Of a stretch of 64,000 nt of DNA, positions 266-48,789 are shown one piece after another. The notes beneath the pieces were generated by a model. It saw only the letters and a program-made list of their open reading frames with translations. It had not been told where the DNA came from and did not search any database. Origin of the DNA: Candidatus Heimdallarchaeum aukensis (lineage in GTDB: Archaea > Asgardarchaeota > Heimdallarchaeia > Heimdallarchaeales > Heimdallarchaeaceae); assembly GCA_021513695.1 (NCBI GenBank), contig CP084166.1, positions 1,664,001 through 1,728,000 on the forward strand, given 5' to 3'. The number at the start of each line of letters is the position of its first letter. Within the stretch, counting starts at the first letter, position 1. A program made the translations under genes and the position numbers.

Positions 266-985
266 TTATATCTGCAATTTTTCTTTTAGTTTTTCCTTAA
301 TATCTATATCTTTTGTGAAGCGATAGTGTAAATAGAGTAGAAATAAGCCTATCACTACAGTAGGGGTTAAGACGAACAACGACCAGCTTATTGTCCTTGA
401 GATAATTATTTCAAGACAAAATGTTAACCCTCCTATTCCAAATAAAATAAAAGCAGCAATATTTGCTCCCTTTTTCTTTACTAATATTGAAGCAAGTACG
501 ACCAATGAGGAGAATAAGATAGTAACAATTACAATAGGAAGGGCATAGGTAACATACCATTCTAATCTCCAATCATCAAAGTAATCCACCAAGGCCAAGA
601 ATCCCATGACAAATGAAACTTCACCCAGAACTAGAACAACTGGCTTCTTTGGAAACAACAAAGGGATTGCTGTAGTACCCCAAATAAATAAAAATGCTAA
701 CATCGGAAACCTAGCCCATGTTATACTTTTATTGATTATCAAATCTAAAAAGGTTGTAATCAAAAATGGTAAAGTAAGAGATATACTTACTATTTCTAAA
801 GCAAACATTCTTTTTTCTTTGTCAGTTCTTTTTCTTACTGGATTTTCTTCAATTGGTTCATCAGGATATTTTTTAGTAACCCGTGTCTCACTAACACCTT
901 CTAATTTTTGTATAGGAGTATCACATAAAGGGCATTTTTCTACTCCTGCATCAACCTCTACTCCACATCTAGAACAATATGGCAT
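266..985 (-). CDS. membrane protein with N-terminal C4 zinc ribbon
   Basis: The ORF begins MPYCSRCGVEVDAGVEKCPLCDTPI (CxxC-x13-CxxC). About 6 hydrophobic transmembrane-like segments follow. No recognisable enzymatic motif. Confidence 0.45.
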   Translation of the reverse strand: MPYCSRCGVEVDAGVEKCPLCDTPIQKLEGVSETRVTKKYPDEPIEENPVRKRTDKEKRMFALEIVSISLTLPFLITTFLDLIINKSITWARFPMLAFLFIWGTTAIPLLFPKKPVVLVLGEVSFVMGFLALVDYFDDWRLEWYVTYALPIVIVTILFSSLVVLASILVKKKGANIAAFILFGIGGLTFCLEIIISRTISWSLFVLTPTVVIGLFLLYLHYRFTKDIDIKEKLKEKLQI

Positions 986-1079
986 GTTTTTTACTCAGTC
1001 ACAGTATTTTTTAAATTTATGCTTGAATAATTTCAATCTAACTTTAACAAAAAAAATAGAGTAATTTCTCAAAAAAACC

Positions 1080-2432
1080 TTAATTAGATTCAACCTTAAC
1101 TGGAATACCCATTTTAACAATTTTTCTAAAGAAAGTTTTTTCCAGTTCTTTACAGTCACTGACATTTCCAAAGTTGATATACATTTTATCTTTAAAACTA
1201 ACAACACCACAGCTTACTTTTCTTGTAGGGTTAGTTCCAGGAAGAAATTGAAAATCCTCAATATGCTCTTCTATTTCTGAGGGAAGTTTTACAAGTCCTA
1301 AGTTTGACAGAGAACCAGAGTATCTTTTTTCACCATAACTCATGTAAATAAGTCGACCAAATAACTTTTTAACAAATAAGGGCATTATCCGCAGAATAGG
1401 ATTAAGTTCAGCTCTTACATTTTGCCTAATACTCTGGCTGATGTACTTATCATTGAGTTCGGTTCGCATGAAGTGGTATACTTCTTTCACTATTTCATTG
1501 AAAGTAAATTTACCAAGGCGAGGATCAATCCCAGGAGTAACAAATAAGGAAAAATTTCTCATGGTTTTACTAGGATAAATACGACGAAGATTTATGGGAA
1601 TTGAGACTCTTATAGGCTTTAATTTTCTCTTTGACTTATTTTTTAAAAGATTGAACTGAATTTCTTGTAAAGAGTCCAAATATATAGCTACGAGAAACTC
1701 AGTTACAGTCACATTATATTCTTTAGCTTTTTTTATGAATTCTTTTACAGGTATTATTCCTGTAGTAACATGATAAACACCTTCTTTTTCAAGTTTATAG
1801 GGGAGTCTGAATGCTTTTGGAGGAAGTTTGATCGAAGGTAAATCTTTATCATAGAATTTTTTGTAAGAATCTTCATATTCCTCAAAATTTGGTTCGTCGC
1901 TAATATCAAAAGCACCTTCAATTTTTGAGACTTCAACACCACGTAATTTCAAATATTCCACAACAAGAGTTTTTAGAAATATAATTCCACCTGTACCATC
2001 AGTTATTGAGTGGTGAAATTCAACTGCGATACGATTTTTGAAAGCTCTTACTCTTAAAGGAAAAGTACCTCTTTTTCTTACACGTAGTTCTTTACAAGGA
2101 TATTTTGAATCTGCTTCTACACGGGGAAAAGTTTTTAGCTTTCGGAGGTAATACCAAAAAAGACCAGGACGTAGATTTACTCTAAAATAAGGAAAGCGAA
2201 CTATGGTTCTATTGAGTGCAGTTTGAAGAAGGTTAACATTAATAGGTTCTTTTAAAGTTGCAGATAGTCGAAAAAGAGCAGGTATCCTTGATGAAGAGAC
2301 CAGTGAAAAGATTATCGCTGCATTATCTAAGCGAAACCATTCACGGAAACTTTCTTTATTTTCATTCATTTCTATCACAAATGCACTCTTAGACCTAATT
2401 GTTTTATCTTCATAAAGATATATCCAACGCAC
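1080..2432 (-). CDS. HHxxxDG acyltransferase, condensation-domain / WS-DGAT-like superfamily (paralog 1)
   Basis: Contains EFHHSITDGTGG, the catalytic HHxxxDG motif of CoA-dependent acyltransferases (NRPS condensation, WS/DGAT, PapA5). About 450 aa with a standalone domain architecture. Roughly 60% identical by eye to the next ORF. Confidence 0.55.
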   Translation of the reverse strand: MRWIYLYEDKTIRSKSAFVIEMNENKESFREWFRLDNAAIIFSLVSSSRIPALFRLSATLKEPINVNLLQTALNRTIVRFPYFRVNLRPGLFWYYLRKLKTFPRVEADSKYPCKELRVRKRGTFPLRVRAFKNRIAVEFHHSITDGTGGIIFLKTLVVEYLKLRGVEVSKIEGAFDISDEPNFEEYEDSYKKFYDKDLPSIKLPPKAFRLPYKLEKEGVYHVTTGIIPVKEFIKKAKEYNVTVTEFLVAIYLDSLQEIQFNLLKNKSKRKLKPIRVSIPINLRRIYPSKTMRNFSLFVTPGIDPRLGKFTFNEIVKEVYHFMRTELNDKYISQSIRQNVRAELNPILRIMPLFVKKLFGRLIYMSYGEKRYSGSLSNLGLVKLPSEIEEHIEDFQFLPGTNPTRKVSCGVVSFKDKMYINFGNVSDCKELEKTFFRKIVKMGIPVKVESN

Positions 2433-2491
2433 TATTTATACTTTCATTTAGCAAAATAATAAAGAAGTAAATTTAATTATAACCAATTTTT

Positions 2492-3826
2492 TTAATTGGT
2501 TTCAATCTTTACTCTCAATCCTAGTTTTCTTAATCTTGTGAAAAACAACCTCTCAACTTCTGATTCTTTCACCACTCTCCCAAAGTTAATATATAAATTA
2601 TCTTTAAAACTTACAATTGCACAACCTGTTTTTAATACTGGACTAGGGGCGGGAAGGAATTGAAAGTCTTCAATGTAGTTTTCTAATGGAACAGGCATTG
2701 AGACTTTACCTAAATTAGTTAAGACGCCAGAATAAAGAAACTCTCCAAGATGGTTATAAATTAATTTTCCAAACATTTTTTTGATGAATAATGGTGTTGT
2801 TTGCATAAGGGGATGAAGTTCTCCTCGTACATTTCTAGCGATTTGTTGATTAATATACTTATCATTTACTTCTATTCTCATATAATGATATACTTCTTTT
2901 ACTATTTCATCAAAAGTAAATTTACCAAGACGAGGATCAATCCCAGGAGTAACATAGAGAGAAAAGTTTCTCATGGTTTTACTGGGATAAATGCGACGAA
3001 GATTCACAGGAATCATTAACCGTATTGGTTTCAGTAATCTCTTTTTTTGCTTTTCAGGTAAAGAAAATAGAATTTCTTGTAAAACATCAATATAAACAGC
3101 TGAAATGAATTCGGTTAAAGATACAGAATGGCTTTTCGTGATCTTCAGTAAATCCCGTATCGGAACTATTCCAGTAGTAATATGATAAATACCCTTTTTT
3201 TCAAGCTTATAAGGAAGATGGAAAGCCCGCATAATCTTTTCAGGTTCAGGAACGGTTTTCTCATAATACCGCTTAAAAGCATCTTCAAATTCTTCAGGGT
3301 CGGGTTTCTGATCAGGACGAAAAACATCTTTCCAATCTTCTACATTAACCCCTAAAAGATTAAAATATTCACCCACTAGAGCTCGGAGAAAAGTTAAAGC
3401 TCCTGTACCATCAGTTAAAGAATGATGGAACTCCACTGCAATGCGATTCTGATAAGCACGAACACGAAAAGGAAGAAAACCACGCCTTCTTATTGGCATT
3501 TTTTGACAAGGATTACGTTCATCTAAGATAACTTTAGGCTTTCCTCTAATTTCACGCCAATGATACCAAGAAAAACCAGGACGTAAATTAACGGAATAAT
3601 ATGGAAAACGAGGGAGAATATTCTCAAAAGCTTGTTGCAAAATATTAACTTTCACTGGTTCTTTAAGAGTAGAGGATAGTCTGAATAAACAAGGGATCCT
3701 CCGACTAGAAACCAAACTAAATAGAGTAGCGGCATTATCCAAAAGATAACGATTGTTTTTACAAACGAGTTCTCTACTCACTATAAGTTCATTCATATTT
3801 TCTTTATCAGGGTGTGATTGTTTCAA
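2492..3826 (-). CDS. HHxxxDG acyltransferase, condensation-domain / WS-DGAT-like superfamily (paralog 2)
   Basis: Contains EFHHSLTDGTGA. Many blocks are shared with the upstream paralog (RIPxLFRLS, NLRPGxxWY, NRIAVEFHHS, IYPSKTMRNFSL, GIDPRLGKFTF, EDFQFLP). This is a tandem duplicate. Confidence 0.55.
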   Translation of the reverse strand: MKQSHPDKENMNELIVSRELVCKNNRYLLDNAATLFSLVSSRRIPCLFRLSSTLKEPVKVNILQQAFENILPRFPYYSVNLRPGFSWYHWREIRGKPKVILDERNPCQKMPIRRRGFLPFRVRAYQNRIAVEFHHSLTDGTGALTFLRALVGEYFNLLGVNVEDWKDVFRPDQKPDPEEFEDAFKRYYEKTVPEPEKIMRAFHLPYKLEKKGIYHITTGIVPIRDLLKITKSHSVSLTEFISAVYIDVLQEILFSLPEKQKKRLLKPIRLMIPVNLRRIYPSKTMRNFSLYVTPGIDPRLGKFTFDEIVKEVYHYMRIEVNDKYINQQIARNVRGELHPLMQTTPLFIKKMFGKLIYNHLGEFLYSGVLTNLGKVSMPVPLENYIEDFQFLPAPSPVLKTGCAIVSFKDNLYINFGRVVKESEVERLFFTRLRKLGLRVKIETN

Positions 3827-3902
3827 ATTCTCACCAACATACTCATTAGAAATTAACTACTTATTTGTTTACTAAACATTATTTAGGTAGATATTTAATG
3901 CT

Positions 3903-4724
3903 TCATTTTGCTGAAGAAGATGAATGAATAAAAAACTTTGCAATTCGTGTAGCAATATAAGCAACAACAGATAGTCCAAAAAGTAAGTATAACCCACTAT
4001 CAACTAATAAAGCAGCTGTCGCCCAATAAATGAAAGAAACAAACTTTTTAGTGAGAGTAAGATCACGAAGCAAATAGGGAATACGTAAAATAAGAGTAGC
4101 AGCAATAACATAAAGCATGGGAGCAAAACCTATGGAGATAAGTTTAGCTCGCAAAGTGGGGCCACGTCGGAAAGTAGTAAACTCTGGATGAAAATCAGGG
4201 CTCTTCCTTTTCTCGTACTTGGAGAGTAAAATAGGTATTGGGACAGTAACTTTGGAGAGAGAATCTTTTCTAACATGTATAAAGTGAAATCCACGTTCTT
4301 CAAAAAGTGCAATTAATTTGTAAGCAGCTTCAAAATCAACCTTTAAATCATAAGCAACAAGTTTTTTTGTACGAATACGAATTAAATAAGCTTTGTCATA
4401 AGATAACAAATAGATACCAAATAGTTCAGAGAAAAGCCACTCCTTATTATTTTTAGGCTCTCGAATGATAAATTTATCAACATTAAAATCAATGATTATT
4501 TCTCCACGGATAATTAAATAAACTAAAGTAAGCAAAAGAGCGTTTAACAAACCAAAATAAAACCAAAGACTTAAACCAAATAAATGTCCAATATGAATAT
4601 CATTTCGATAAGGGATATAATAAGCTAAAGAAGTAACTACAATAAGCAAAAATAGGGTAGAGTACCTAACACGCATCCGTTGCTCAAAATATCCATTATC
4701 AAAGGAGTAATCCATAGTTGTCAA
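3903..4724 (-). CDS. hypothetical polytopic membrane protein
   Basis: 273 aa with hydrophobic helices at both ends and a charged central domain. Same strand as the acyltransferase pair, immediately downstream of it. Confidence 0.4.
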   Translation of the reverse strand: MTTMDYSFDNGYFEQRMRVRYSTLFLLIVVTSLAYYIPYRNDIHIGHLFGLSLWFYFGLLNALLLTLVYLIIRGEIIIDFNVDKFIIREPKNNKEWLFSELFGIYLLSYDKAYLIRIRTKKLVAYDLKVDFEAAYKLIALFEERGFHFIHVRKDSLSKVTVPIPILLSKYEKRKSPDFHPEFTTFRRGPTLRAKLISIGFAPMLYVIAATLILRIPYLLRDLTLTKKFVSFIYWATAALLVDSGLYLLFGLSVVAYIATRIAKFFIHSSSSAK

Positions 4725-4840: not shown

Positions 4841-5395
4841 CTAAAAACTAAAGTCATCAAATTCTTGTTCCTGAATATATTGGGATAAGGATAACTCCAA
4901 AAAAGGAGAAAGAGCAACATAAGACCATTGACCAATTACTTCAACAAAAATAATCAAATCAGGATTTTCTAAATCAACCTTTCCAGAAGAAATCTTAGTA
5001 GCAATAGAGGAGATAATAGACTTTCTATCTAACTGAGTGTGCCGACGACGTAAAAGGATTTTCCATTTCTGCTCCGGCCCAATTTCACAAGAGAAGAGAG
5101 AACCAATTTGTGCAAAATTGTCTAAAGAAGAAGAAATTTCATACTGAAAAGGAACCAACTTTAGAGTGTATCTGAAAATAGAAGGATCAGACTCAACTAT
5201 ATCAGACAAAAGCTGTAAAGTATAAACAGAATCAGGATCAAAAAAAGCTAAAGATAAACCAGAAATTTTCTTAATGGGATAAACAGTAACATTATCATAA
5301 TCTAATAATTCAGTAAGAGCGTAATAGACCTCACTAGATGCACTTCGCTCAAAATTTCTAGCACTAGAAATAACAAAACCATTCTTTTTGTTCAT
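4841..5395 (-). CDS. THUMP domain-containing protein (tRNA-modification associated)
   Basis: C-terminal region GKVDLENPDLIIFVEVIGQWSYVALS resembles the THUMP signature (VDLknPDvvi.vei.g..ayvsl). About 184 aa, as in archaeal stand-alone THUMP proteins. Divergent from the tRNA gene. Confidence 0.5.
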   Translation of the reverse strand: MNKKNGFVISSARNFERSASSEVYYALTELLDYDNVTVYPIKKISGLSLAFFDPDSVYTLQLLSDIVESDPSIFRYTLKLVPFQYEISSSLDNFAQIGSLFSCEIGPEQKWKILLRRRHTQLDRKSIISSIATKISSGKVDLENPDLIIFVEVIGQWSYVALSPFLELSLSQYIQEQEFDDFSF

Positions 5396-5571: not shown

Positions 5572-5693
5572 AGCGCGGTGGGATAGATGGTCAAGTCCGC
5601 TGGGCTCATATTTTAGCCCGCTTTAGAGCCTATAGCCGGGTTCTATAAGGAGAAACCCAGAGATCGGTGGTTCAAATCCACCCCGCGCTACCA
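5572..5693 (+). tRNA. initiator tRNA-Met (anticodon CAU) with a 44-nt intron at the canonical 37/38 position (5611..5654) and an encoded CCA
   Basis: Acceptor stem AGCGCGG/CCGCGCU with an A1:U72 pair, the archaeal initiator hallmark. D arm GGAU/GUCC around the loop AGAUGGUCAA. Anticodon arm CUGGG-CUCAUAA-CCCAG with three G:C pairs next to the loop. T arm GGUGG-UUCAAAU-CCACC, discriminator A73, CCA at 5691..5693. The intron is TTTTAGCCCG...AAGGAGAA. Confidence 0.8.
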
Positions 5694-5712: not shown

Positions 5713-5848
5713 TTGTTATTTTTGTTTTCTATTTCTCTTAATTTTCATTTACTCTTTTACTAATTTCCATTTTTCTATTTCTTTTATTGTTTCAAATTTT
5801 ATTCTCCTTTTGTAAGCATTTAAATATTTGATTTTCATTTTTTATCTA

Positions 5849-6790
5849 ATGTCTGATGATTACATCGTTCAAGTTAAGCATTTATCCCGTCGTTTTGGTT
5901 CTCGTATGGTTGTTTATAATCTTTCCATGAATATTCCCAAAGGTTACATTTATGGTTTATTAGGTCCCAATGGTGCTGGTAAAAGTACTACTATTAAGAC
6001 TTTAACTGGCCGCATTCGCCCTACTTCTGGTAATGTTCGTGTTTTTGGTTTAGACCCTTGGACACATCGTAAGCTAATTAATTTTCGTCTTGGTTATTTA
6101 CCTGAGAACCCTTCTTTTTATCAAGATATGAAAGTTTTATCCTTTACTCGTCTTATGGCTCGTCTTTACAACTTTTCTCGTTCTGAAGCTCTTTCTCGTG
6201 CGCGTATTGTTTTAGATTTACTGGGATTGGGGCGTTTTGAAGATTACCGAGTTGGTAATTTATCTCAAGGTCAAAAACAACGTCTAGGCTTTGCTTGTGC
6301 CATCCTTAACGAACCTGAATTCCTTATTTTGGATGAGCCTACAGCTAATCTTGACCCTGAAGGTCGTGTTTATGTTATGGAATTAATTTCTCGTTTACGA
6401 GATGAAGGTAAAACTATTCTCATCAGCAGTCACATTTTACCTGAGATTGAGCGTATGTGTGACCATATTGGTATTATTTCTAATGGTCATCTTTTGACTT
6501 CTCAAAAGACTACTCAATTGATCAAAGATGTTTATGATCTTGAGTACAAGATTGTTGTTTCCGACCCTGAAACTTTGGTTAAGGAGTTTTCTGGCTGGGA
6601 TTTTATAGCTAATTTTACTCTTGAAGATAACCTAATTATTGTTGAAATCAAAAATGATCGCCTTAATGACTTATGGAAGGCCGTTCCCAAATTTTGCTCT
6701 GAAAATAACATTGAACTTCGTACTATGTCCCCTGTTAAAGATCCTTTGGAAAAGGTTTTCTTATCATTAGTTCACACTGGAGGTGCTTAA
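5849..6790 (+). CDS. ABC transporter ATP-binding protein (ABC-2 type)
   Basis: Walker A GPNGAGKST, signature LSQGQKQR, Walker B ILDEPTANLD and the H-loop are all present. The ORF track starts at TTG 5828; ATG at 5849 (MSDDYIV) is the more plausible start. Confidence 0.85.
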   Translation: MSDDYIVQVKHLSRRFGSRMVVYNLSMNIPKGYIYGLLGPNGAGKSTTIKTLTGRIRPTSGNVRVFGLDPWTHRKLINFRLGYLPENPSFYQDMKVLSFTRLMARLYNFSRSEALSRARIVLDLLGLGRFEDYRVGNLSQGQKQRLGFACAILNEPEFLILDEPTANLDPEGRVYVMELISRLRDEGKTILISSHILPEIERMCDHIGIISNGHLLTSQKTTQLIKDVYDLEYKIVVSDPETLVKEFSGWDFIANFTLEDNLIIVEIKNDRLNDLWKAVPKFCSENNIELRTMSPVKDPLEKVFLSLVHTGGA

Positions 6791-6792
6791 TT

Positions 6793-7665
6793 TTGAATAA
6801 CAGTTTCGCGACAGTTTTCAACAGATTTGGTAATTTTTATCGCCGTTCTGGTTTATCTTTGAAATCTTTCATTATTTCAAAACATACTTTTAATCAGAAT
6901 CTTAAAAACAAGCGTTTTTACATTATTTTCTTTTACTTTTTACTTCCTGTTTTAGGTAGTATTTTCGACGTTTTAATTTCTGAACCTTCTTATTATTCTG
7001 GAAAAGCTTACGCTGTTTATCAAATTCATCAGTCTCTCAATAATACTTTACAAGTTTGGTGGATGTCCATTTTTGGTCAATTATTTATTATCCTTATTGC
7101 AAGTGACGCTATTTCTAGTGAGTTTGAGAAAGGGACCATCTTGTCTCTTAAATCTCGCCCTATTAGTGACATAGACATTTTTTTGGGTAAGTTTATTGGA
7201 ATTACTCTTCTTTCTTCTATATTGGTTATTCCTGGGGGATTTATTATTTATCTCACTCAAATTTGGACTTATTCTCCAAAGAATTTTTGGTGGGTGTTCT
7301 GGCACTCTCTTGACGAATTAATTGTCAGTCTGTTAGTTGTAATATTGGGTTTTATGTTACTTCTAAGCATCTGTTTTCTCTTCTCTTCAATATTCAACAA
7401 ATCTCTTCAAGCTACTTTAGTTTCTTTACTTGTTATCTTTGCTGTCCAGCTCCTATCCTCTGTCTTTTCTTTTTCTGATAATTTAATAAGTAAATTTAAC
7501 ATCACTCGCTATTTACAACATTTTCTCAACCCTGTTCTATACAATGTCAATACAATAACTACATCAGGATCCATTACAAACGAGCTTATAGGCTTTATTG
7601 CTTTAATAGTCATTTTACAGATTATTGGTTTTTGGATTTTTAGTAAAAAGGAGGTTCATCAATGA
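6793..7665 (+). CDS. ABC-2 family transporter permease
   Basis: Six hydrophobic helices. TTG start sits 2 nt after the ATPase stop. The ORF end overlaps the next gene by 4 nt, giving an operon arrangement. Confidence 0.6.
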   Translation: MNNSFATVFNRFGNFYRRSGLSLKSFIISKHTFNQNLKNKRFYIIFFYFLLPVLGSIFDVLISEPSYYSGKAYAVYQIHQSLNNTLQVWWMSIFGQLFIILIASDAISSEFEKGTILSLKSRPISDIDIFLGKFIGITLLSSILVIPGGFIIYLTQIWTYSPKNFWWVFWHSLDELIVSLLVVILGFMLLLSICFLFSSIFNKSLQATLVSLLVIFAVQLLSSVFSFSDNLISKFNITRYLQHFLNPVLYNVNTITTSGSITNELIGFIALIVILQIIGFWIFSKKEVHQ

Positions 7666-8726
7666 AATTTAGATCTATTTCTCGAATAATGTGTTTAACT
7701 CTCGTTCTTTTTATTTTTAGTTCATCTATTATCTTTGCTGCAGAAACTACAACAGAGCAAGGAGCTAAAACCAGACTAGAGTTGTTAAAAGAATTTGTTC
7801 AGGATAATTACTTAAACGACAGTTTTTCTAACGAACTCGGACAGAACTCCTCTGTTGAATCCACTTACTATGGTGTTTTATTGTCTGATTATTTGAAAAT
7901 TAGTTATGACGTTTACGACATTATTTTCTACATCCAGAAACATCAGAAAAGCAATTATGGTTTTTCTAACCAAGTGGATCAAGAAACAACCATTAATGCT
8001 ACCTTTTTTGCTGTTCAAACATTAAAACAATTAGGTATTGGTAGCGAAGATCTTAACCATTGGCAGATTTTTCAATATCTTAACGAAACCATTTCTGAGA
8101 TTCTTTATAACCCCTCGACCTATGTTAATTTAACCACACAAGATATTTATTCCATTTATCGTTTCTTTCTAACTAGCTCTATTTTGAATGAAACTGTACT
8201 ATTTCCTTATAATTCCTTACTTGCCGCTCTAAAGCACATACAGTTCACAAATGGTACTTTCCCAAGTTTCTATTACGCTATTGAAGTTGTTTACCTTCTT
8301 TCTCTTTTTGAACAGTCGCCTATCGATGTACAAGGAACAATTCGTTATCTCAAGTCATTTCGTTTTAATGATACTGGATTTGCAAAAGACTCCTCTGACG
8401 TCATTTCTATAAAAGATACTTACTACGCAATCTCTACGATTTCTATGTTAGGTGGAGAAATCGAAAATAAGAATAAGATTGTCGATGCTATTTTAGATCT
8501 GCAAGCTCCTGAGGGAGGTTTTATGGATAAAAAAGGTCATAAGCCTACTCTTGAGAGTTCTTATCTCGCTTACCAGATCCTTGTTTTAGTCAACAATATA
8601 AACAGTTTAAACCAGCTAGCCTTTTTAGAATCTACTGGTTTTCTGAATTTTAACTTTATAATAATAGGGAGCATAACTCTATTTTCGTTGTTTATAATCA
8701 GAAAAAAAAGAAATAAAAAAGTTTAA
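7662..8726 (+). CDS. secreted, C-terminally membrane-anchored protein with prenyltransferase/squalene-oxidase-like (alpha-alpha toroid) repeats
   Basis: N-terminal signal peptide MKFRSISRIMCLTLVLFIFSSSIIFA. About six repeats with YY(G/A)(V/I) and GGF-type motifs (STYYGVLL, TFFAVQTL, FYYAIEVV, DTYYAIST, QAPEGGFMDKKGH, SSYLAYQIL). C-terminal transmembrane helix plus RKKRNKK tail. The 4-nt start overlap couples it to the permease. Confidence 0.45.
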   Translation: MKFRSISRIMCLTLVLFIFSSSIIFAAETTTEQGAKTRLELLKEFVQDNYLNDSFSNELGQNSSVESTYYGVLLSDYLKISYDVYDIIFYIQKHQKSNYGFSNQVDQETTINATFFAVQTLKQLGIGSEDLNHWQIFQYLNETISEILYNPSTYVNLTTQDIYSIYRFFLTSSILNETVLFPYNSLLAALKHIQFTNGTFPSFYYAIEVVYLLSLFEQSPIDVQGTIRYLKSFRFNDTGFAKDSSDVISIKDTYYAISTISMLGGEIENKNKIVDAILDLQAPEGGFMDKKGHKPTLESSYLAYQILVLVNNINSLNQLAFLESTGFLNFNFIIIGSITLFSLFIIRKKRNKKV

Positions 8727-8746
8727 TTTTTTTTAATTTCTATATT

Positions 8747-9751
8747 TTACTCTTTATAACCCCATTTTTCTATCATGTCTTTCCATTCAGCAGTTATCTT
8801 CTCTTTTTCTTCTGGAGGAATGGAATAATTTGCAGCCTTAAATTCTTTAATTGACTCAAGATATGTGTTAATTATTGGCCTTACTTTGTTAAAGTCTCCC
8901 AAAGATAGTTTCTCATAAATTCTTTCAAGATTCTCTATCGGATTTGCTATTAGATCTTCGTATTTTACTTCCACATACTGCCCCTCTGGGAGATTTTGAA
9001 TGTCCTCATATAATTTTTTATGCATTGTTTTATAAGTTGAGAAAATTAGTTCATCAAGGTCATAGGTTCTTTTTTGAAATTCATAGTATTTAATGTTATA
9101 TCGGTGTAATTTTCTTGTTGAATAGAATACATGATAAGGATTTCTATAAATATGCACAAATTTTGCTTTGGGAAAAATTTCATGCAAGATTTTCACTTTT
9201 GCAGTATCAGATGGATTCTTTAGTACTAGCTGTTTTCCTCCTTTAGTCAGTGTTAATTTCTTTATCATGTACTCAAAACTATTCTTAAACTCTTGAACGA
9301 CCTTTTCTTCTGCATTTTCAAATGTTAATGTTTTCATATATTTGTTTAAATGTCTTGGAAAGGCAATCGCTGCTAGAGGAGAATGGAGACATAAACTCAT
9401 TATTGCGAATTCATGCTCATGTGGCATACGGGGAGACATTCTTACATTATCTGTTGGTCTTTTTTTAGGAGTGAATGGGGCCATTAAATTATGAATTAGT
9501 TTATTACTTCCACATATTAGATGTGGAAAAGCTGTTTCTGCCATTGACATATATTCAAATTGTGGATCTAATGTTAATAATGTATGAAGATGTGTTGTCC
9601 CACTTCTCCAATGTCCAATAACAAAAATAGGTTCTTTATCTACAGTAATTTGTTTTATTTTTTTACCAAAACGAATTTTCTCATACCAGCGGAGAGGTGC
9701 TGTAACTAATACAATAAGCGTGATCCCAATAAATTTTGGAATATATTTCAT
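8747..9751 (-). CDS. sulfotransferase-family protein
   Basis: GHWRSGTTHLHTLL matches the 5'-phosphosulfate-binding motif (K/R-S-G-T-T). RNPYHVFYS matches the 3'-phosphate-binding RNP..S motif of PAPS-dependent sulfotransferases. N-terminal transmembrane helix. Confidence 0.55.
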   Translation of the reverse strand: MKYIPKFIGITLIVLVTAPLRWYEKIRFGKKIKQITVDKEPIFVIGHWRSGTTHLHTLLTLDPQFEYMSMAETAFPHLICGSNKLIHNLMAPFTPKKRPTDNVRMSPRMPHEHEFAIMSLCLHSPLAAIAFPRHLNKYMKTLTFENAEEKVVQEFKNSFEYMIKKLTLTKGGKQLVLKNPSDTAKVKILHEIFPKAKFVHIYRNPYHVFYSTRKLHRYNIKYYEFQKRTYDLDELIFSTYKTMHKKLYEDIQNLPEGQYVEVKYEDLIANPIENLERIYEKLSLGDFNKVRPIINTYLESIKEFKAANYSIPPEEKEKITAEWKDMIEKWGYKE

Positions 9752-18831: not shown

Positions 18832-19593
18832 GGTAGTGTCTAGTTTTCTTCCGACAAAATATTTGTGGGGACTCTAATAGTAAGATATGAAAACACAAAA
18901 ACTATCTACTCTTTTTAAGAGATGCAGAGTCCCCAAAAAAATAATAATAAAAGCGATTTATGAATATATTGGTTCAAAGAATGGTTTGAGGACAGTAGCA
19001 TGGAAGAATGGTTTAACGCATCAAACATTATGGTATTGGGTAAAGAAGTTCAGGCTCTTTAGGGAAAGTTTACATAGAGTTGTAGCAGAGAGAGGGGGAA
19101 TGCCAGAGATTATAGTAGTAGATGAAACAGAGATTAAGACCTCTCAAGGCTCAATGTATATGTGGTTCGCGTTAGATCCTTACAACAAGACTTTACTGGG
19201 TTTTAGTATTACTAAAGGACGGAGTAATCTTGAATGTTTACTAACTTTCCGTTATTGGCTCAAATGTTGGGGTTTTAAGCCCCGTATTGTCGTTACAGAT
19301 GCAGGAGTATGGTATCCTGTCTTACTTCGTCTCGGTATCAAAATCTCCGTTATCAAAGGTGGTTTACGCTCCTATATTGAACGTTTTAATGCTACTCTTA
19401 AGAGTTATCGTTGGTTTCATTCTATTCTCCACTGCACTTGTCCTATCCGTGCCGTCTATGGCTCTACTCATCTTTCTGGTTTTCTTACTCTCTTTATGCT
19501 CCATTATAATTTCGTTCGTCCTCATCAGAGCTTGGGACATCCTCCCCTTAGTTCCTTTTTACCTAGGAGGTGGTATAAAAACTAGACACTACC
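18832..19593 (+). mobile_element. compact insertion sequence (762 bp) with perfect 16-bp terminal inverted repeats and a 9-bp target-site duplication
   Basis: Left inverted repeat GGTAGTGTCTAGTTTT (18832..18847). Right inverted repeat AAAACTAGACACTACC (19578..19593) is the exact reverse complement. Both are flanked by the direct repeat GCTGCTACA (18823..18831 and 19594..19602). It encodes a single DDE transposase. Confidence 0.75.
18887..19585 (+). CDS. DDE transposase (rve/integrase-core type) with N-terminal HTH
   Basis: N-terminal HTH (GLTHQTLWYWVKKF). Catalytic D in VVDETEIK, D in VVTDAGVWY, E in ERFNATLK, plus the YNFVRPHQSLG motif typical of rve-core transposases (IS481/IS3-like). Confidence 0.7.
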   Translation: MKTQKLSTLFKRCRVPKKIIIKAIYEYIGSKNGLRTVAWKNGLTHQTLWYWVKKFRLFRESLHRVVAERGGMPEIIVVDETEIKTSQGSMYMWFALDPYNKTLLGFSITKGRSNLECLLTFRYWLKCWGFKPRIVVTDAGVWYPVLLRLGIKISVIKGGLRSYIERFNATLKSYRWFHSILHCTCPIRAVYGSTHLSGFLTLFMLHYNFVRPHQSLGHPPLSSFLPRRWYKN

Positions 19594-19661: not shown

Positions 19662-21947
19662 TTGAATAAACTTTTAGGTGATGATTTGTCATTCATAGAA
19701 CATTTGAATTTAACAGAAGATGAAAAAAAGATATATGCGTTTTTACTTAACTTTGGAAATTTGACAGCGATAGAACTAGCTAATTTTGCAGGAAAGAATT
19801 TTCAGACTGTAATAAATGCTTTAAACTCTTTAATTGAAAAAGGAGCAGTTGGTGAAACTAAAGGATATATCAAGAAGTATTTTGCTAGAATCCCATTATC
19901 ATATCTTGGAGAAAAGAGCTCAAATATTTCCAATCAAATCAACGAAAATCTTACTAAGGCCACTTCTTCTCTAACAAATGAAAAAGAAAAGCTCACAGAA
20001 CTTGCAACCAAAACAAAAACTGTGATTTCAGAAGAAATTGAGCGCAAGAAAAAAAGTTTAGATTCACAGATGAATACAAAAAAAGATGAAATACATTCCA
20101 ATATATCAGAAATTAAAGAAGAGGATTCAAACAAAATTGCAGAAATCCGATCTCAAATGGGAGAGGATATCAATTCTTTAAAGGATGAAATTACTTCAGA
20201 ACTTAGAGATAGTACGGGAAAAGCTTTAGAATCAATTTCTACTTCAAAAAAATCAATAGCGGATTCAAAAACAGAACTCATAACAAACTTAGAAAATAAT
20301 TCAGCAAAAATTATTGAGGAAACTGCAACTTCAGTCAAGACAAAAAGTGATGATATAAATAATGCAGTATCTAATCTTCAACCAAAATTAGAAGAATTGA
20401 AAGCTACCTATGTAAAAGAATTTGATGAAATTAGCAATATCACAAAAACAAACTTTGATCTAGCTAGATTAGATCTAAAGGAATTTAATGATAAACAAGC
20501 AACAAAAACTATTGATTATTCTCAAAACATAACAACAGAATTAGGTAAAACTCTAGACAATGCAACAGTGACAGTAAAAAGCCATTTAGATACGCTCAAT
20601 AATAACTTGGAAAATTTGTTAAATACCAAGACTGAGGAAATGGTACTGAAAATTAAAGAAACCTTAGCATCCTTGAGCAATGAAATCGAAGCAATAAAAG
20701 GTGATCTTGTAGCAGAGATGGTACAACAAAAAAGTGCTGTTTTAGCATCTACATTACTGAAAATAAAAGATGAGCTAGCCATCAAATTCACAGAGTTCTC
20801 AAACGAAGAACAACGAAGGAAACAGGAATTTATGAGTGAGAAAGATATTTTTTCACAAAAATTAGATGCCTATTATAATGAGACTATAGATGAATTTACC
20901 AAGAAAATTGAAGAAATAAAAACTAACGCTGAACAGAAAGTCAGCAGCATTAATTCAAAAGCTTTGGCTGAATTTACTTCACTCTCTGAACAGATAGTGT
21001 CGATCTTGTCTGAACACCAAGAAACTTTTAGTAAGAAAATAAACGACATTAAAAGCACAATTAGTGAAGAATTAGAAAAAAATGCTAATGTAAACAATGA
21101 AACGTTATCTAACATTGAGAATATGCTTAAAGCCATTATTGAAACCAACTCAACAAAAATAGAAGACTTATACGAAAAAACAAAAACAACTATAGAAACA
21201 CAAACAAAGATAATTCAGGAAGCAATTTTAAGCACAGTTGACAAAATAGTCAATGACACATTGGAAACAGCAAAAGCATTAGTTTCCATTTCAAAAGGCG
21301 AGATCGATAAAACAAAGAATTTCATCGAAGAGATGATAGAAAAGGAAATAGAAAACAGTTTTGGAATAATGGAAGAGACACATTCAAATCTCGAAAATCT
21401 AGCTAAAGAACTGATGAGTGTTTCTGTGAAGCTTGGTGAAGATTTTCAAACTTTAGAAGCAAAAACAACAGCAGTTAAAGAACCGGAAATAAATACAACT
21501 GCGATTATAGGTGTTGATGCAGTTGAAGAACACATAAAAGAGATATTGAAAAATGTACAAAGAAAGGGGACATTATTTGTACCAACAAAAAGGTCTGTTC
21601 CAGTAGAAGTCTTAAAAGCATTAAAAGGAACTGTGCAAATTACAGTAGTTACTAAAATTGACGAGGAGATGGACAAAGAGTGGATAAATGATTTGCTGAA
21701 TAATACACAAGCAAACATCATGATCAGAACAATACGAGAAGGAGGATTAGGTGGAGGAATGGGAACAGATATGCCTGTAATCTATGCTGTAGAGAGAGAC
21801 AGTTCTGAGGTGCTAGTAGCAATTGAAGATGAAACTACTAAAGAAGTAGTTGGGATACTATCAAACTCTACCGAATTTGCAAAAGTCCTATCATACACCA
21901 TACTTAGCAATTACTTAAGCGGAGCAGCTTCCAGACAAATAAGGTAA
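19662..21947 (+). CDS. TrmB-like winged-helix N-terminal domain fused to a coiled-coil region of about 600 aa and a C-terminal globular domain
   Basis: N-terminus LTEDEKKIYAFLLNFGNLTAIELANFAGKNFQTVINALNSLIEKGAV is a TrmB/MarR-type wHTH. Residues about 90-650 are E/K/T/S/N-rich heptad-like sequence. The C-terminal 130 aa are non-repetitive. TTG start. Confidence 0.5.
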   Translation: MNKLLGDDLSFIEHLNLTEDEKKIYAFLLNFGNLTAIELANFAGKNFQTVINALNSLIEKGAVGETKGYIKKYFARIPLSYLGEKSSNISNQINENLTKATSSLTNEKEKLTELATKTKTVISEEIERKKKSLDSQMNTKKDEIHSNISEIKEEDSNKIAEIRSQMGEDINSLKDEITSELRDSTGKALESISTSKKSIADSKTELITNLENNSAKIIEETATSVKTKSDDINNAVSNLQPKLEELKATYVKEFDEISNITKTNFDLARLDLKEFNDKQATKTIDYSQNITTELGKTLDNATVTVKSHLDTLNNNLENLLNTKTEEMVLKIKETLASLSNEIEAIKGDLVAEMVQQKSAVLASTLLKIKDELAIKFTEFSNEEQRRKQEFMSEKDIFSQKLDAYYNETIDEFTKKIEEIKTNAEQKVSSINSKALAEFTSLSEQIVSILSEHQETFSKKINDIKSTISEELEKNANVNNETLSNIENMLKAIIETNSTKIEDLYEKTKTTIETQTKIIQEAILSTVDKIVNDTLETAKALVSISKGEIDKTKNFIEEMIEKEIENSFGIMEETHSNLENLAKELMSVSVKLGEDFQTLEAKTTAVKEPEINTTAIIGVDAVEEHIKEILKNVQRKGTLFVPTKRSVPVEVLKALKGTVQITVVTKIDEEMDKEWINDLLNNTQANIMIRTIREGGLGGGMGTDMPVIYAVERDSSEVLVAIEDETTKEVVGILSNSTEFAKVLSYTILSNYLSGAASRQIR

Positions 21948-22947: not shown

Positions 22948-25938
22948 ATGGAAAATATCGAAGCTGTGTGTATCAAAATTCTCTCTCAAAAGGGAGGAGA
23001 AAATCCCCTCACTTCATTATTAGTTGAAATAAACAAAATTCAATATGTTCTTAATCTTTGGACTCCTTGGAATGAAATTGGTGATTACATTCAACCTTAT
23101 ACCAAGATACGTGCTTTTAACGTTGACAAGATAAAAAATAGTGACTCGATCTACTATTCTGCCGGAAAAAAGGCCATAGTTGTCGTAGATCCAGATATTC
23201 TAATTAATGCGTCTACAATTGGAAATATTTCCTATTGCCCAAGAAGTTATTACATCAGTGAAAAAATGGGAGATACTCTTTCTCCTTTATCTGCAATTAA
23301 AGGAACAATTGTTCATGTAGCTTTGAGTACAGCTATCGCTTCTGGAAACTCTCCCACGGAAGTATTATCTGATGTTATTGATTACTATTCAATCCAATTC
23401 GAGCAACTAGGTTACTCTCGAGAAAATATTGAAACAGAAGTCTACAAAATGGTTGAAGCACTAGATCAATTTATTAAAACTCTTCCCACAGAAACAATTC
23501 CCGAGTCACTCTTTTTCTCACCTTACTTAGGAATCAGAGGAAGAATTGATGTACTTGCAGAGCGTATTTACGAACTTAAAACAGCTAAACTTGGTACAGA
23601 TGATGATGCACGATTTTCAGATATGATGCAAGTAACTCTTTATTCTTTTGGTTTAACAGATATGAAGGAAAGTATAGCACAAACAGATGGAACTGTTTTA
23701 TATGTAGGTTCAGAAACTCTTCAACCAAAAGAAGTAAACATTAGTTGGGGAATCTTAAGATATGCTATTCAAATGCGTAATATTGCCTATAGAATCTCTT
23801 TTTTAGATTATATTCCTCCTATTCTTGGCGAAAACCAATCCAGAAAATGCAGTAAATGTTCAGTTCAAGTTATGTGTAGCCTTTTTTGCGCAGGGTTAAA
23901 TCAATTTAGGAATTGTGAAATATGTAATCATTCTCATTTTTGCAGTAAAACAGTTTTATCTGAAAAAGAGCAAGAATATTTCAATAAATATAGTTACTTG
24001 TTGTCTCAGGAAAGGCTAGAAACAAACCGCAATTTAGCTGATTTGTGGAATCTTTCTCTAGAAGAGAGAGTAGAAAAAGGAAAAACTATAGTTAACTTAG
24101 TATTAAAAAATGAAATTTTAGAAAATGGAATAAGGACATTAGTTTTTTCTTGTAACAATCAGTCAGAGATAAGAGAAGGAGATGTTATCATCTTAAGTGA
24201 CGGGGAAGTAATTTCCAATCCAATTAGTACAGGAACTGTGACTAACATTACATCAACATCTATAGAAATAGAAACAAAAGCTCATCCTGAAAAAGTTTCT
24301 GTAATTGATTTGTATTCTATTGATGTGGGATTTAATCGTCAACAAAGAGGATTATTCAACTTTATTTTTAAATCTAATAATTTTAAAGATATAATCTTGG
24401 GGCATAAACCTCCTGTTATAAAAAAAGTCAAAGGAAATTTTGTACCTAACAATTCTTCTCAAAATGAAGCTATCCAAAAGATTCTTGGTACTGAAAATTA
24501 CTTATTGATTCAAGGCCCTGCAGGAACAGGAAAAACACATGTAATTGCCAAATCTGCAATTTTACTCGCTGATAAAAAAGAGAAGGTGCTTTTAACAGCT
24601 TATACAAATCGAGCTGTTGACAACATGTGTAAATATCTATTAGAAAATGGTTATCAAAATTTTGTTAGGTTAGGCTCTACGCATGCCACACAGAGAAAAA
24701 TAAGAAAATACACTTTGTTTTCAATATTGAAGAAAAATAAAAATAAAAAAGTACTCGATCTTCTTGACGAATATCAAATAATTGTTGCCACAACATCCAC
24801 TATTTCTTCACCAGTTTATTCTAATCTTGGAATACAAACAGTAATCGTTGATGAAGCAAGCCAGATGACTGAAACAACTCTGCTTTCTGCTTTAATAGAA
24901 GGTAAGAAATTTATTCTTGTTGGAGACCACAAGCAATTGCCCCCTGTTATTCAAAGTGTGCTGTGTAAAAACGAGGGGTTTGATATTTCATTATTTGAGA
25001 AATTGGCCAAATCTAATCCCCAATTTGTTCATTTACTAACAATCCAATTTAGAATGAATGAGAAAATAATGGAATTTTCAAACAAAAAGTTTTATGAGAA
25101 CAAACTAGAATGTTTTGATAACCTAATTGCACTCCAAAACTTATATGACTTAGGAAATTTCGCAGGAGATTTTCAGCAATTTGAAAATAAGGCTATCTAT
25201 GACCCAAAAATGCCTTTAGTATACGTTCAAGTAAATGGAAAATTCAATCCTGAAAAAAAACTGAATGCTATGGAAGCTGAAATTGTTGCTACAATAGCTA
25301 AAAACTTTTTGAGATTAGGAATAAGCACTGAACAAATTGGAGTTATTGCACCTTATCGAGGGCAAGTAGGTGAAATAAGAAGATATATACCAGGTGTTTC
25401 GGTCGATACTGTAGATAGGTTTCAAGGTTCTGACCGAGAGATTATAATTCTCTCATTAACAGAAACAAATATTCACGGTTTTAAGGGATTTTCAGATGAA
25501 AGAAGACTCAATGTTGCTATTACGCGGGCTAAAAAGAAACTGGTAGTAGTTGGAAACCCAAATCTTACTGAGGGAGAGTTAGGAGAGTACATTAGTTATC
25601 TAAGAGATAATGTAGAAAATGTTCAAGTTAAAGAGATAGAAGAAAGAGAGGAATTGATAGAAAAACAAATAAGAACGGTCATAGTTGCTGATTCCATATC
25701 AAAAGTTGCTTCATTTTTCAAAAAAGTTAAGGCAAAAGGAAAAGAATTATACAAATCAAAAGAAGAAATAAACAAATGTCCAATTTGTTTCCAACAAGTT
25801 TATGAGAATGCTATTCAATGTCCAATTTGTGAAAAACTTTATCATTACACTCACTTAATCCAATGGATTAAAGAAAAAGGAAGATGCCCTTACTGCAAAA
25901 CATCTTTATCTATATATTCTGTCTATGCAGAAGAGTAA
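22948..25938 (+). CDS. Cas4/Dna2-like PD-(D/E)xK nuclease (Fe-S cluster) fused to an SF1B Upf1/Dna2-like helicase, with a C-terminal RING/PHD-like zinc finger
   Basis: N-terminal nuclease carries RecB motifs: GRIDVL (motif II), YELKTAK (E-x-K) and QVTLY (QxxxY). A Cas4/Dna2-type 4-Cys set is present: YCPRSY plus CSKCSVQVMCSLFC. Helicase motifs include Walker A GPAGTGKTHV, motif II VIVDEASQ, VGDHKQLPP, DRFQGSDREIIILS and motif VI NVAITRAKKKLVVVG. The C-terminus reads CPIC-x10-CPIC-x4-H-x2-H-x12-CPYC. Confidence 0.7.
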   Translation: MENIEAVCIKILSQKGGENPLTSLLVEINKIQYVLNLWTPWNEIGDYIQPYTKIRAFNVDKIKNSDSIYYSAGKKAIVVVDPDILINASTIGNISYCPRSYYISEKMGDTLSPLSAIKGTIVHVALSTAIASGNSPTEVLSDVIDYYSIQFEQLGYSRENIETEVYKMVEALDQFIKTLPTETIPESLFFSPYLGIRGRIDVLAERIYELKTAKLGTDDDARFSDMMQVTLYSFGLTDMKESIAQTDGTVLYVGSETLQPKEVNISWGILRYAIQMRNIAYRISFLDYIPPILGENQSRKCSKCSVQVMCSLFCAGLNQFRNCEICNHSHFCSKTVLSEKEQEYFNKYSYLLSQERLETNRNLADLWNLSLEERVEKGKTIVNLVLKNEILENGIRTLVFSCNNQSEIREGDVIILSDGEVISNPISTGTVTNITSTSIEIETKAHPEKVSVIDLYSIDVGFNRQQRGLFNFIFKSNNFKDIILGHKPPVIKKVKGNFVPNNSSQNEAIQKILGTENYLLIQGPAGTGKTHVIAKSAILLADKKEKVLLTAYTNRAVDNMCKYLLENGYQNFVRLGSTHATQRKIRKYTLFSILKKNKNKKVLDLLDEYQIIVATTSTISSPVYSNLGIQTVIVDEASQMTETTLLSALIEGKKFILVGDHKQLPPVIQSVLCKNEGFDISLFEKLAKSNPQFVHLLTIQFRMNEKIMEFSNKKFYENKLECFDNLIALQNLYDLGNFAGDFQQFENKAIYDPKMPLVYVQVNGKFNPEKKLNAMEAEIVATIAKNFLRLGISTEQIGVIAPYRGQVGEIRRYIPGVSVDTVDRFQGSDREIIILSLTETNIHGFKGFSDERRLNVAITRAKKKLVVVGNPNLTEGELGEYISYLRDNVENVQVKEIEEREELIEKQIRTVIVADSISKVASFFKKVKAKGKELYKSKEEINKCPICFQQVYENAIQCPICEKLYHYTHLIQWIKEKGRCPYCKTSLSIYSVYAEE

Positions 25939-39407: not shown

Positions 39408-40073
39408 TTATGAAGAAACTTTTTGTGATTCTAAAAGATATAATCTTTTCTTTAATGAATGATACTTTTTAGCAAATTCTAGGCTAGAGACTTCATAATC
39501 CTCAAACTGTTGTTCAAGTGCAAATAATTCATTCTCAACTTTTAATATTTCATCCTCAAGTAGTTTTGATTTCTCTTGAGCAATAACATTTTCAGAAACA
39601 CTGCTTCTCTCTTTTCGCTCGATCTCTGCTAATTCCCTCTTTTTCTGTTCTAATATTCGAACTAATTGAGATTTTTGATTATTTAACATCGCAATTTCTG
39701 ATGTTGGATCTTCCCATGTAGTTTCAGCATATGAAACCATTTTTGCTCTTACTCTTTGAAACAGACGCTTTACTTCTGCAATTACTTGAAAAATATGATA
39801 AGTTGGCCTCCACCGAGCTAACATTCTCATAGAAAGGATTCCATCTTCGACATTTGGATGTTCCATGGGAGTATTGACATAGATAGTTGGAGGAACATTT
39901 GGAAAATCATTAGGAATAACAATTTCTATTTCAGCATTTTTGGTGCCATTATAGGTTTGAACTGGAACAAAACCTTTCCATATTCTTAAATTGCCATCTT
40001 TAGGTTCAAAACCATAAGCTCTTTCATAAATAAATTGGGCCTCTCGACTTAGAATTTCATCGGAAATGGTCAT
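39408..40073 (-). CDS. UEV (inactive ubiquitin-E2 variant) domain + coiled-coil protein, TSG101/Vps23 (ESCRT-I)-like
   Basis: N-terminal about 120 aa, IEIVIPNDFPNVPPTIYVNTPMEHPNVEDGILSMRMLARWRP, has the E2/UEV beta-hairpin-PP-HPN-x3-G layout. Ser/Met stand where the catalytic Cys would be, so it is non-catalytic. The C-terminal 100 aa are continuous heptad coiled coil. Confidence 0.55.
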   Translation of the reverse strand: MTISDEILSREAQFIYERAYGFEPKDGNLRIWKGFVPVQTYNGTKNAEIEIVIPNDFPNVPPTIYVNTPMEHPNVEDGILSMRMLARWRPTYHIFQVIAEVKRLFQRVRAKMVSYAETTWEDPTSEIAMLNNQKSQLVRILEQKKRELAEIERKERSSVSENVIAQEKSKLLEDEILKVENELFALEQQFEDYEVSSLEFAKKYHSLKKRLYLLESQKVSS

Positions 40074-47764: not shown

Positions 47765-47977
47765 TTAACGTATAAAAATACTTAATATTGTCGTAATTAT
47801 CAACACTGTTACCCCAGCAACCACTAACCAAAACACTATATCAAACAGATAAATCATTTTTGGAACTTTTACTTTTTCCCATTTCCTTACTACAGTTTTG
47901 TTTAAATTCTTTTCTGAGCTCATTTTTCCACCTTTCTCCTTATTATCTATACCTTTCCTATTCCACTTTTCTCCCAT
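47765..47977 (-). CDS. small single-pass membrane protein
   Basis: K-rich N-terminus then one TM helix (IYLFDIVFWLVVAGVTVLIITTILSIF). Overlaps the 5' end of the next ORF unless it starts at the internal Met. Confidence 0.25.
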   Translation of the reverse strand: MGEKWNRKGIDNKEKGGKMSSEKNLNKTVVRKWEKVKVPKMIYLFDIVFWLVVAGVTVLIITTILSIFIR

Positions 47978-48465: not shown

Positions 48466-48599
48466 TTTATTCTTTTAATACTTGGTTGCTTTGACTATTT
48501 AATTTTTCTTAGAATTTTCTAATATTATTATAACAACAAGAGTAATGTTAAAAAGCTCCTTTCCTTTTTTTTATATGACTACATTATATGTAGTCGTTC

Positions 48600-48664: not shown

Positions 48665-48789
48665 ATTAATTAGTTCTTTTCGCTTTTTGCAGCAGTTTAC
48701 ATTTCTTTTTTCGTAATTGTAACTTGTTAATTGAACATTCTCTTTTAAAAAAGCAATATTTAATTAATTATTCAGTATTTTTTTCTTTA

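Follow-up and report, generated by a model that had tools for sequence, protein, structure and literature searches.

A duplicated condensation-fold enzyme of a Heimdall-group archaeon belongs to an unstudied gene pair shared with anaerobic bacteria

Two tandemly duplicated enzymes of Candidatus Heimdallarchaeum aukensis were found to belong to an unstudied gene pair, an enzyme and a zinc-ribbon membrane protein (DUF6320), that is common to this Heimdall-group Asgard archaeon and anaerobic bacteria. The locus lies in a 64-kb window, by which is meant the whole stretch of 64,000 nucleotides that was analyzed. It is read here, with a probability of roughly 0.55, as an acyltransferase module with two components, associated with the membrane and belonging to an uncharacterized family. 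To our knowledge, no member of either the enzyme family or DUF6320 has been characterized. Literature searches returned nothing on DUF6320, and searches on ester-linked lipids and acyltransferases of Heimdallarchaeia and on bacterial relatives of AATase returned nothing on the enzyme family. COG4908 came up in one paper alone, reportedly a comparative-genomics study of Mycobacterium tuberculosis.

Gene layout, catalytic motif and fold

The features of the locus, all on the minus strand, are as follows.
266..985 (-): DUF6320 protein UJG39639.1, in which a Cys4 zinc ribbon at the N-terminus is joined by a linker to six transmembrane helices
923..976 (-): zinc ribbon of the DUF6320 protein, CSRCGVEV...CPLC, with C4, C7, C18 and C21 invariant in 62 homologues
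1080..2432 (-): ORF1 (K9W45_07150), stand-alone condensation/CAT-fold enzyme, the faster-evolving paralogue
1995..2015 (-): catalytic motif of ORF1, HHSITDG, with H141 invariant in the family and the first His variable
2492..3826 (-): ORF2 (K9W45_07155), paralogous condensation/CAT-fold enzyme, the more conservative copy
3407..3427 (-): catalytic motif of ORF2, HHSLTDG
3903..4724 (-): 273-aa membrane protein (K9W45_07160), with TM-like hydrophobic stretches at both ends and a non-hydrophobic middle

An earlier note on this DNA had described two ORFs of 444 to 450 amino acids carrying an HHxxxDG motif, and both the ORFs and the motifs are present. ORF1 is 450 aa long when counted from a GTG start and ORF2 is 444 aa long when counted from a TTG start. 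The true start of ORF1 is most likely the ATG at 2369, giving a protein of 429 aa, because the NCBI annotation of K9W45_07150 agrees with it, because an orthologue that is 88% identical (P0002) begins there, and because the TATAAATA box overlaps the upstream GTG. The identity between the two proteins, given before as about 60%, was 57% by BLASTP over 418 aa with no gaps. The enzymes are indeed stand-alone; neither adenylation nor carrier domains lie near them.

Both proteins are members of the HHxxxDG condensation/CAT-fold superfamily, as judged from fold and motif conservation. The motif is no chance match, since its second histidine (H141 in ORF1 numbering) is kept in 91/91 enzyme-family sequences, and D145 and G146 in 90/91, within a fold of the HxxxD acyltransferase superfamily; the earlier note had named a coincidental motif in an unrelated family as the outcome that would count against it. 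The first histidine is missing in 43% of the family. The enzymes have the two-lobed, CAT-like alpha/beta fold, and sequence register and secondary-structure context place the conserved HxxxD(G) loop after an N-lobe beta-strand. In ORF1 this loop follows the strand at 134-140 and precedes the helix at 146-163, is in register with the HHAMVDG of AtfA in a profile alignment (hhalign), and lies within residues 135-259, which match Pfam Condensation profile positions 133-267.

ORF1 and ORF2 are old paralogues, and both have retained the catalytic residues. ORF2 is nearer than ORF1 to the single-copy Heimdall orthologues. The host belongs to the Heimdallarchaeia, not to the Lokiarchaeia. At least 566 species-level genomes carry the family, whose homologues are mostly bacterial, in keeping with the earlier description of it as essentially bacterial.

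The DUF6320 partner and other neighbors

The membrane protein that the earlier note placed after the enzymes is the 273-aa gene (4724-3903), which, as the genes are transcribed, lies upstream of both. This protein is an orphan restricted to the Heimdall group, and the linked partner of the enzymes is instead the DUF6320 gene downstream of them (985-266), outside the region that the note covered. The DUF6320 protein scored 40.5 bits against PF19845, above the gathering threshold of 29.9, and is named DUF6320 domain-containing protein by NCBI. In Bacteria and Heimdallarchaeia alike, evolution has conserved DUF6320 as the partner of the enzyme; the two families show gene linkage and co-phylogeny, and the pair occurs widely among anaerobic Bacillota and Spirochaetota. 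Six Heimdall enzyme paralogues have no adjacent DUF6320, and when an alternative conserved neighbor was sought for them, only unrelated flavodoxin-like and other genes were seen.

Physical contact between enzyme and DUF6320 would fit the genetic evidence. No natural fusion of the two was found; a 717-aa ORF in a Spirochaete locus that was considered as one proved, from its domain coordinates, to be an ORF extended out of frame through GC-rich DNA; the true gene order there is enzyme, enzyme, DUF6320. The enzyme and DUF6320 genes of this window may not be co-transcribed, because there are T-runs after ORF1 and a TATA-like box ahead of DUF6320. A structural search with DUF6320 gave no informative match.

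The 273-aa protein may be a lineage-specific accessory. It is syntenic with the enzyme/DUF6320 module in nine archaeal loci, in three different arrangements, and matched no Pfam or NCBIfam model. Remote homology was uninformative for this protein because only nine homologue clusters are available, and a profile run exhaustively against 1.84 billion proteins found only four representatives. A neighboring block of genes for an ABC-2 transporter, a prenyltransferase-fold protein and a sulfotransferase was considered as a possible part of the system, since sulfolipid biosynthesis offers a parallel. Three related Heimdallarchaeaceae genomes are the only ones in which the block lies close by; none of the other loci that were read for gene content carries it, and it was thus treated as synteny by descent. 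A defense-system reading was also set aside, as none of the five proteins had a PADLOC match at E<=0.01.

Known relatives and alternative readings

The earlier note had labeled the enzymes as WS/DGAT-type. As wax-ester or triacylglycerol synthases, or as makers of ester glycerolipids, they would supply bacterial/eukaryote-type ester or storage lipids. The catalytic loop aligns with that of AtfA, but the family fails every WS/DGAT profile. Against TIGR02946 (curated cutoff 309.95 bits) ORF2 scored 10.6 bits and ORF1 gave no match, while a genuine AtfA sequence scored 530 bits; none of the 91 family members matched the WS/DGAT Pfam models (PF03007, PF06974); hhalign of the family against AtfA gave a probability of 26%; and WS/DGAT (Marinobacter structure 6chj) ranked tenth among the structural matches of the enzyme. 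The conserved motifs of the family (W-Y-R-L-D-N-A-A, T-M-R-N-F and I-D-P-R-L-G) differ from those of WS/DGAT. The families differ also in partner requirement, in that the present enzymes are almost always paired with DUF6320, whereas we know of no need of WS/DGAT enzymes for a dedicated polytopic partner. Genes for glycerolipid or fatty-acid synthesis are not linked to the enzymes, either here or in related loci, and the WS/DGAT reading is considered quite unlikely. The earlier note had also raised ester-linked lipids and wax/acyl-ester storage compounds. Nothing in the analysis pointed to ester-linked membrane lipids or to stores of wax or triacylglycerol; the 64-kb window contains no PlsC, PlsY, GPAT, ACP or FAS genes.

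The sole Pfam model recurring across the enzyme family was AATase (PF07247), matched by 66 of the 91 members at E<=0.01 and by ORF1 at 30.4 bits (gathering threshold 22), and the UniRef name of the proteins is 'Alcohol acetyltransferase'. These matches would suit an Atf-like alcohol O-acetyl- or acyltransferase whose acceptor is a hydrophobic alcohol, small or sterol-like, that is esterified so that it can be detoxified or exported. In yeast, Atf2 and Say1 form a cycle of esterification and esterase action, and a similar cycle might operate in some bacteria: in 14 loci of Christensenellaceae, Oscillospiraceae and Ruminococcus, the enzyme and DUF6320 genes are immediately preceded by an Abhydrolase_3 gene for which Say1_Mug180 is a secondary match (41 bits). 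This esterase, however, occurs in a single bacterial clade only, and the Heimdall loci lack it. The AATase match of ORF1 spans only positions 280-469 of the 500-position profile, ORF2 scored 14.1 bits, under the threshold, and the likeness to the fungal alcohol acetyltransferases Atf1 and Atf2 is weak and confined to the C-terminal lobe, with no orthology shown. An Atf-like role has a low probability.

Neither ORF1 nor a 91-sequence profile found anything relevant when searched against PDB sequences. The nearest solved structure is AzeD of Pseudomonas aeruginosa (PDB 8s6l; 13% identity), the founder of the 'C_standalone' clade. AzeD lacks the first histidine of the motif, as do the 43% of family members noted above. 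The chemistry of the enzymes is uncertain because AzeD is a dehydratase; its pathway is an NRPS pathway. By extension, the enzymes could act on a small metabolite as non-acyl-transferring dehydratases, epimerases or cyclases, like AzeD or the CmodAA domains. The low identity argues against this, as do the absence of NRPS, PKS or other natural-product genes from the loci examined, a near-obligate polytopic membrane partner of a kind not reported for AzeD homologues, and the conservation of D145 and G146 as in transferases; such a function is judged unlikely.

A carrier-protein-dependent tailoring enzyme like PapA5, supplied with acyl groups by a PKS, NRPS or ACP, is the least probable alternative, and a highly improbable one. 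PapA5, the phthiocerol dimycocerosyl transferase of M. tuberculosis (PDB 1q9j), is about 12% identical to the enzyme, with no match at the sequence level, and the PapA_C model was matched by none of the 91 members. The PF00668 Condensation model gave 17.5 bits, below its gathering threshold of 30.6, and matched 5/91 members at E<=0.01. No carrier or adenylation genes were present in the annotated flanks; no carrier-protein, adenylation or ketosynthase domain appeared in the Pfam lists of five loci; and neither these nor any other gene family recurred broadly in 86 loci. PKS and MmpL genes are likewise absent from the vicinity of the enzyme family, which occurs in anaerobic Bacillota, Spirochaetota and Heimdallarchaeia and is paired with the DUF6320 zinc-ribbon membrane protein, a type of partner not reported for PapA5. 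Another pairing with a membrane protein, that of the BAHD-fold CER2-like proteins with the condensing enzyme KCS6/CER6 (PDB 9uu3, 9kqg), is eukaryotic and involves a membrane partner unrelated to DUF6320. CER2-like proteins are non-catalytic modulators.

A proposed membrane acyltransferase module and its significance

In the two-component acyltransferase module proposed here, the catalytic subunit would be a soluble, cytosolic, stand-alone condensation/CAT-fold enzyme, nearest to PapA5 and AzeD. His141, a residue of the loop E-F-x-H-x-[LI]-T-D-G-T-G, would serve as general base or transition-state stabilizer while the acyl group of a thioester donor passes to the hydroxyl (or amine) of a hydrophobic acceptor, probably one embedded in the membrane. 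Acyl-CoA is favored as the most likely donor because no carrier-protein gene is linked. DUF6320, by means of its cytosolic Cys4 zinc ribbon and six TM helices, would dock the enzyme at the inner membrane face and present the acceptor or take up the product.

The pair appears to have been inherited and transferred as a unit, and may have moved between anaerobic Bacillota/Spirochaetota and Heimdallarchaeia. The enzyme gene would then have been duplicated in tandem in Heimdallarchaeaceae, where the lineage-specific 273-aa membrane protein presumably became linked.

A bolder and distinctly improbable version is that the pair is an unrecognized membrane acylation machine, making and perhaps translocating an ester-linked acyl lipid, that Heimdallarchaeia acquired from anaerobic bacteria and then expanded. 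Were this true, the machine would be a non-canonical route to fatty-acyl ester lipids in PlsC-less Heimdallarchaeia, which would bear on the 'lipid divide'. Heimdallarchaeia are the closest archaeal relatives of eukaryotes, and a product that was an acyl-ester lipid, at present a possibility only, would bear on the handling of fatty acyl groups in the archaeal ancestors of eukaryotes. Stand-alone condensation-fold enzymes such as PapA5, WS/DGAT, BAHD and AzeD are varied in the chemistry they perform on lipids and metabolites. Identification of the product would give a function to the enzyme and DUF6320, two large families now called 'hypothetical', and would also provide a clear case of a two-gene module of bacteria entering Heimdallarchaeia and being duplicated there.

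The gene cluster and its surroundings

Four co-directional genes occupy positions 266-4724 on the minus strand of the window, and all four products were identical to Candidatus Heimdallarchaeum aukensis database entries.

Cluster genes and HHxxxDG motifs, in window coordinates
4724-3903 (-), 273-aa membrane protein, K9W45_07160
3826-2492 (-), ORF2, 444 aa, K9W45_07155
3427-3407 (-), HHxxxDG motif of ORF2, verified
2432-1080 (-), ORF1, 450 aa from a GTG start, K9W45_07150
2015-1995 (-), HHxxxDG motif of ORF1, verified
985-266 (-), 239-aa DUF6320 protein, UJG39639.1

The tandem paralogous ORFs described in the earlier note, each with its motif, were thus recovered, and the identity estimated there at about 60% was found to be 57% over 418 gap-free residues. 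No third copy of the enzyme was found elsewhere in the window. The true start of ORF1 is probably the ATG at 2369, yielding 429 aa: the NCBI annotation agrees, an 88%-identical orthologue begins at that ATG, and the upstream GTG is overlapped by a TATAAATA box. The 273-aa membrane protein, which had been placed after the enzymes, instead lies on their upstream side; another membrane-protein gene, encoding DUF6320, lies downstream of the enzymes, outside the region that note had covered. The host class is Heimdallarchaeia, not Lokiarchaeia. Antisense to the DUF6320 gene, a 152-aa ORF (606-1064, +) was seen again in 10 loci; it reflects conservation of the sense strand and is almost certainly not a gene.

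The 273-aa family was restricted to Heimdall-type genomes (nine clusters, four representatives among 1.84 billion proteins) and was absent from the bacterial loci. Its gene adjoined the enzyme/DUF6320 module in nine archaeal loci, in three arrangements (co-directional, divergent, or with a THUMP gene on either side), and the product is possibly a lineage-specific accessory rather than a core component. The THUMP gene, encoding a stand-alone 184-aa protein at 4841-5395 (-), adjoined the 273-aa gene in eight Heimdall loci in varying orientations (the window and relatives' loci L018, L019, L021, L022, L027, L087 and L089). A block at 5828-9751 encoded an ABC ATPase, an ABC-2 permease, a 354-aa protein (prenyltransferase alpha/alpha-toroid domain; apparent signal peptide and apparent TM anchor at the C terminus) and, in convergent orientation, a sulfotransferase (PF13469). 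L088 and L089 are rearranged yet retain this block beside the enzyme cluster; in the remaining loci examined for gene content it showed no linkage to the module. The block possibly represents an exported or surface-modifying system. In related Heimdallarchaeaceae, mevalonate-pathway kinases (GHMP kinase, AA_kinase) and a geranylgeranyl reductase lay a few kb from the enzyme cluster (about 9155-13488 in L087/L088, 1-1868 in L089), in a region that precedes the window start; this proximity is probably conserved archaeal synteny, not a functional link.

The rest of the window held typical Asgard housekeeping and eukaryote-signature genes, with the following features.

Other features of the window
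5572-5690 (+), Rfam tRNA match, 52 bits over 119 nt; no tRNA called by ARAGORN anywhere in the window; most likely an archaeal tRNA with an intron
18887-19585 (+), 232-aa ORF with weak rve integrase core matches, possibly a mobile-element remnant
19662-21947 (+), 761-aa protein, TrmB-type HTH at the N terminus, then a long helical stretch with below-threshold apolipoprotein-like repeat matches
22948-25938 (+), 996-aa protein with an unusual combination of Dna2/PD-(D/E)XK nuclease, SF1 helicase and C-terminal RING finger (PF13639, 24.5 bits, under the threshold of 27.3)
39408-40073 (-) and 47947-50370, eukaryote-signature-type genes: E2/UEV ubiquitin-conjugating-like protein with coiled-coil tail, PCI-domain protein, WD40 protein

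Identity of the enzyme family

The enzymes represent a new family-level variant inside a well-known superfamily. Across 91 sequences the family motif was E-[FY]-x-H-x-[LI]-T-D-G-T-G, located between a strand (134-140, ORF1 numbering) and a helix (146-163). E138, H141 and G148 were invariant and D145 and G146 were present in 90 of 91; 39 of the sequences had C, S or Y in place of the first His. The motif aligned in register with HHAMVDG of AtfA, at an overall hhalign probability of only 26%; the AtfA query itself scored 530 bits against TIGR02946. Membership of the HHxxxDG acyltransferase superfamily, as first proposed, is therefore established. The narrower WS/DGAT-type assignment is refuted: against TIGR02946, ORF2 scored 10.6 bits (cutoff 309.95), ORF1 gave no match, and none of the 91 members matched the WS/DGAT models. 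None matched the PapA_C, BAHD or CAT models either. Among the other profiles named in the earlier note, AATase weakly matched ORF1 (30.4 bits, gathering threshold 22, C-terminal lobe only) and 66 of 91 members, and Condensation fell short (17.5 bits, threshold 30.6; 5 of 91 members). No relevant sequence-level match to a solved structure was found for the family.

The DUF6320 partner and a proposed function

The downstream protein matched the DUF6320 model at 40.5 bits (threshold 29.9). It comprised an N-terminal zinc ribbon with four invariant Cys, then a charged linker leading into six TM helices; W90, P150, N175, W201-S202 and H220 were conserved. It resembled no solved structure in the structure comparison, and no paper mentioning DUF6320 was found in the literature search. 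Neither ORF1 nor ORF2 contained a TM-like segment, which predicts a cytosolic location for both enzymes.

In the model with the best support, a soluble acyltransferase of the condensation fold would dock on a dedicated membrane partner and transfer an acyl group to a hydrophobic acceptor on the cytosolic side of the membrane. Acyl-CoA would serve as donor, since no carrier or adenylation gene was linked. Two hints favor this model, namely BAHD-fold proteins bound to membrane enzymes in solved structures and a Say1-like esterase gene in Clostridia. The latter, an Abhydrolase_3 esterase (162 bits; secondary match to Say1 steryl-acetyl hydrolase, 41 bits), immediately preceded the enzyme and DUF6320 genes in 14 loci from Christensenellaceae, Oscillospiraceae and Ruminococcus (L058, L067, L069-L074, L078, L079, L081, L083, L084 and L086), possibly forming an acylation/deacylation operon. 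The main caveat is that the enzyme may perform non-transferase chemistry, because AzeD, the closest solved structure and one with a degenerate first His, is a dehydratase.

No finding connected the module with wax esters, with triacylglycerol or with ester phospholipids. The co-occurrence with ester-lipid genes raised in the earlier note did not appear in the window, which held no glycerolipid acyltransferase, ACP or FAS gene, and PlsC is reported to be missing from both Heimdallarchaeum species (Wu et al., PMC8813620). Relevance of these enzymes to the lipid divide is speculative and quite improbable.

Conservation and descent of the enzyme/DUF6320 pair

In the first three loci compared (T. 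stercorarium, Paramaledivibacter and a Heimdall MAG), DUF6320 immediately followed the enzyme and the other neighbors differed. A scan of GTDB species representatives gave at least 566 loci with enzyme relatives, the best 80 of which were retained, and DUF6320 was located in relatives' loci by iterated HMM searches of ORFs. Where flank was sufficient, all 59 bacterial loci and 18 of the 24 archaeal loci had DUF6320 next to the enzyme on the same strand, mostly directly downstream, with the two ORFs frequently overlapping; in one Heimdall group it lay upstream. Pairwise distances of enzyme and DUF6320 were correlated (r=0.72, Mantel p=0.001), and both trees placed the same three Spirochaete loci within the archaeal clade; enzyme and DUF6320 therefore evolve and move together as one unit.

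A neighbor-joining tree built from 92 enzymes grouped every one of the 28 archaeal sequences with three Spirochaete sequences in a single clade (bootstrap 76), which upon midpoint rooting was nested within Bacillota and Spirochaetota diversity on a weakly supported backbone. The much larger distribution in bacteria is consistent with one ancient transfer of the pair between domains. Transfer from bacteria to Heimdallarchaeia is the most probable direction, not a proven one, and later transfer of the pair to some Spirochaetes is possible.

In two other Heimdallarchaeaceae genomes, ORF1 and ORF2 each have orthologues with which they grouped (bootstrap values of 94 and 100), so the tandem duplication predates those lineages. 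ORF1 evolves faster (63% identity versus 76% for ORF2 between the same genomes), and single-copy Heimdall genes were nearer to ORF2. Both copies retained the conserved positions apart from a few, mostly conservative, substitutions, a pattern that fits sub- or neo-functionalization with both still active. Independent tandem copies occurred in bacteria (L065, L075, L082). Extra Heimdall paralogues without an adjacent DUF6320 formed separate clades (L020, L030, L041, L044, L076, L077); a conserved flavodoxin-like gene (~165 aa) lay upstream of the paralogue in L076 and L077, and a 2-oxoacid dehydrogenase-type acyltransferase gene (DHDIVDG motif) in L030.

The enzyme/DUF6320 module is a real, well-conserved and uncharacterized system, and what is new about it is the near-obligate pairing of the two proteins and the sharing of that pairing between domains.
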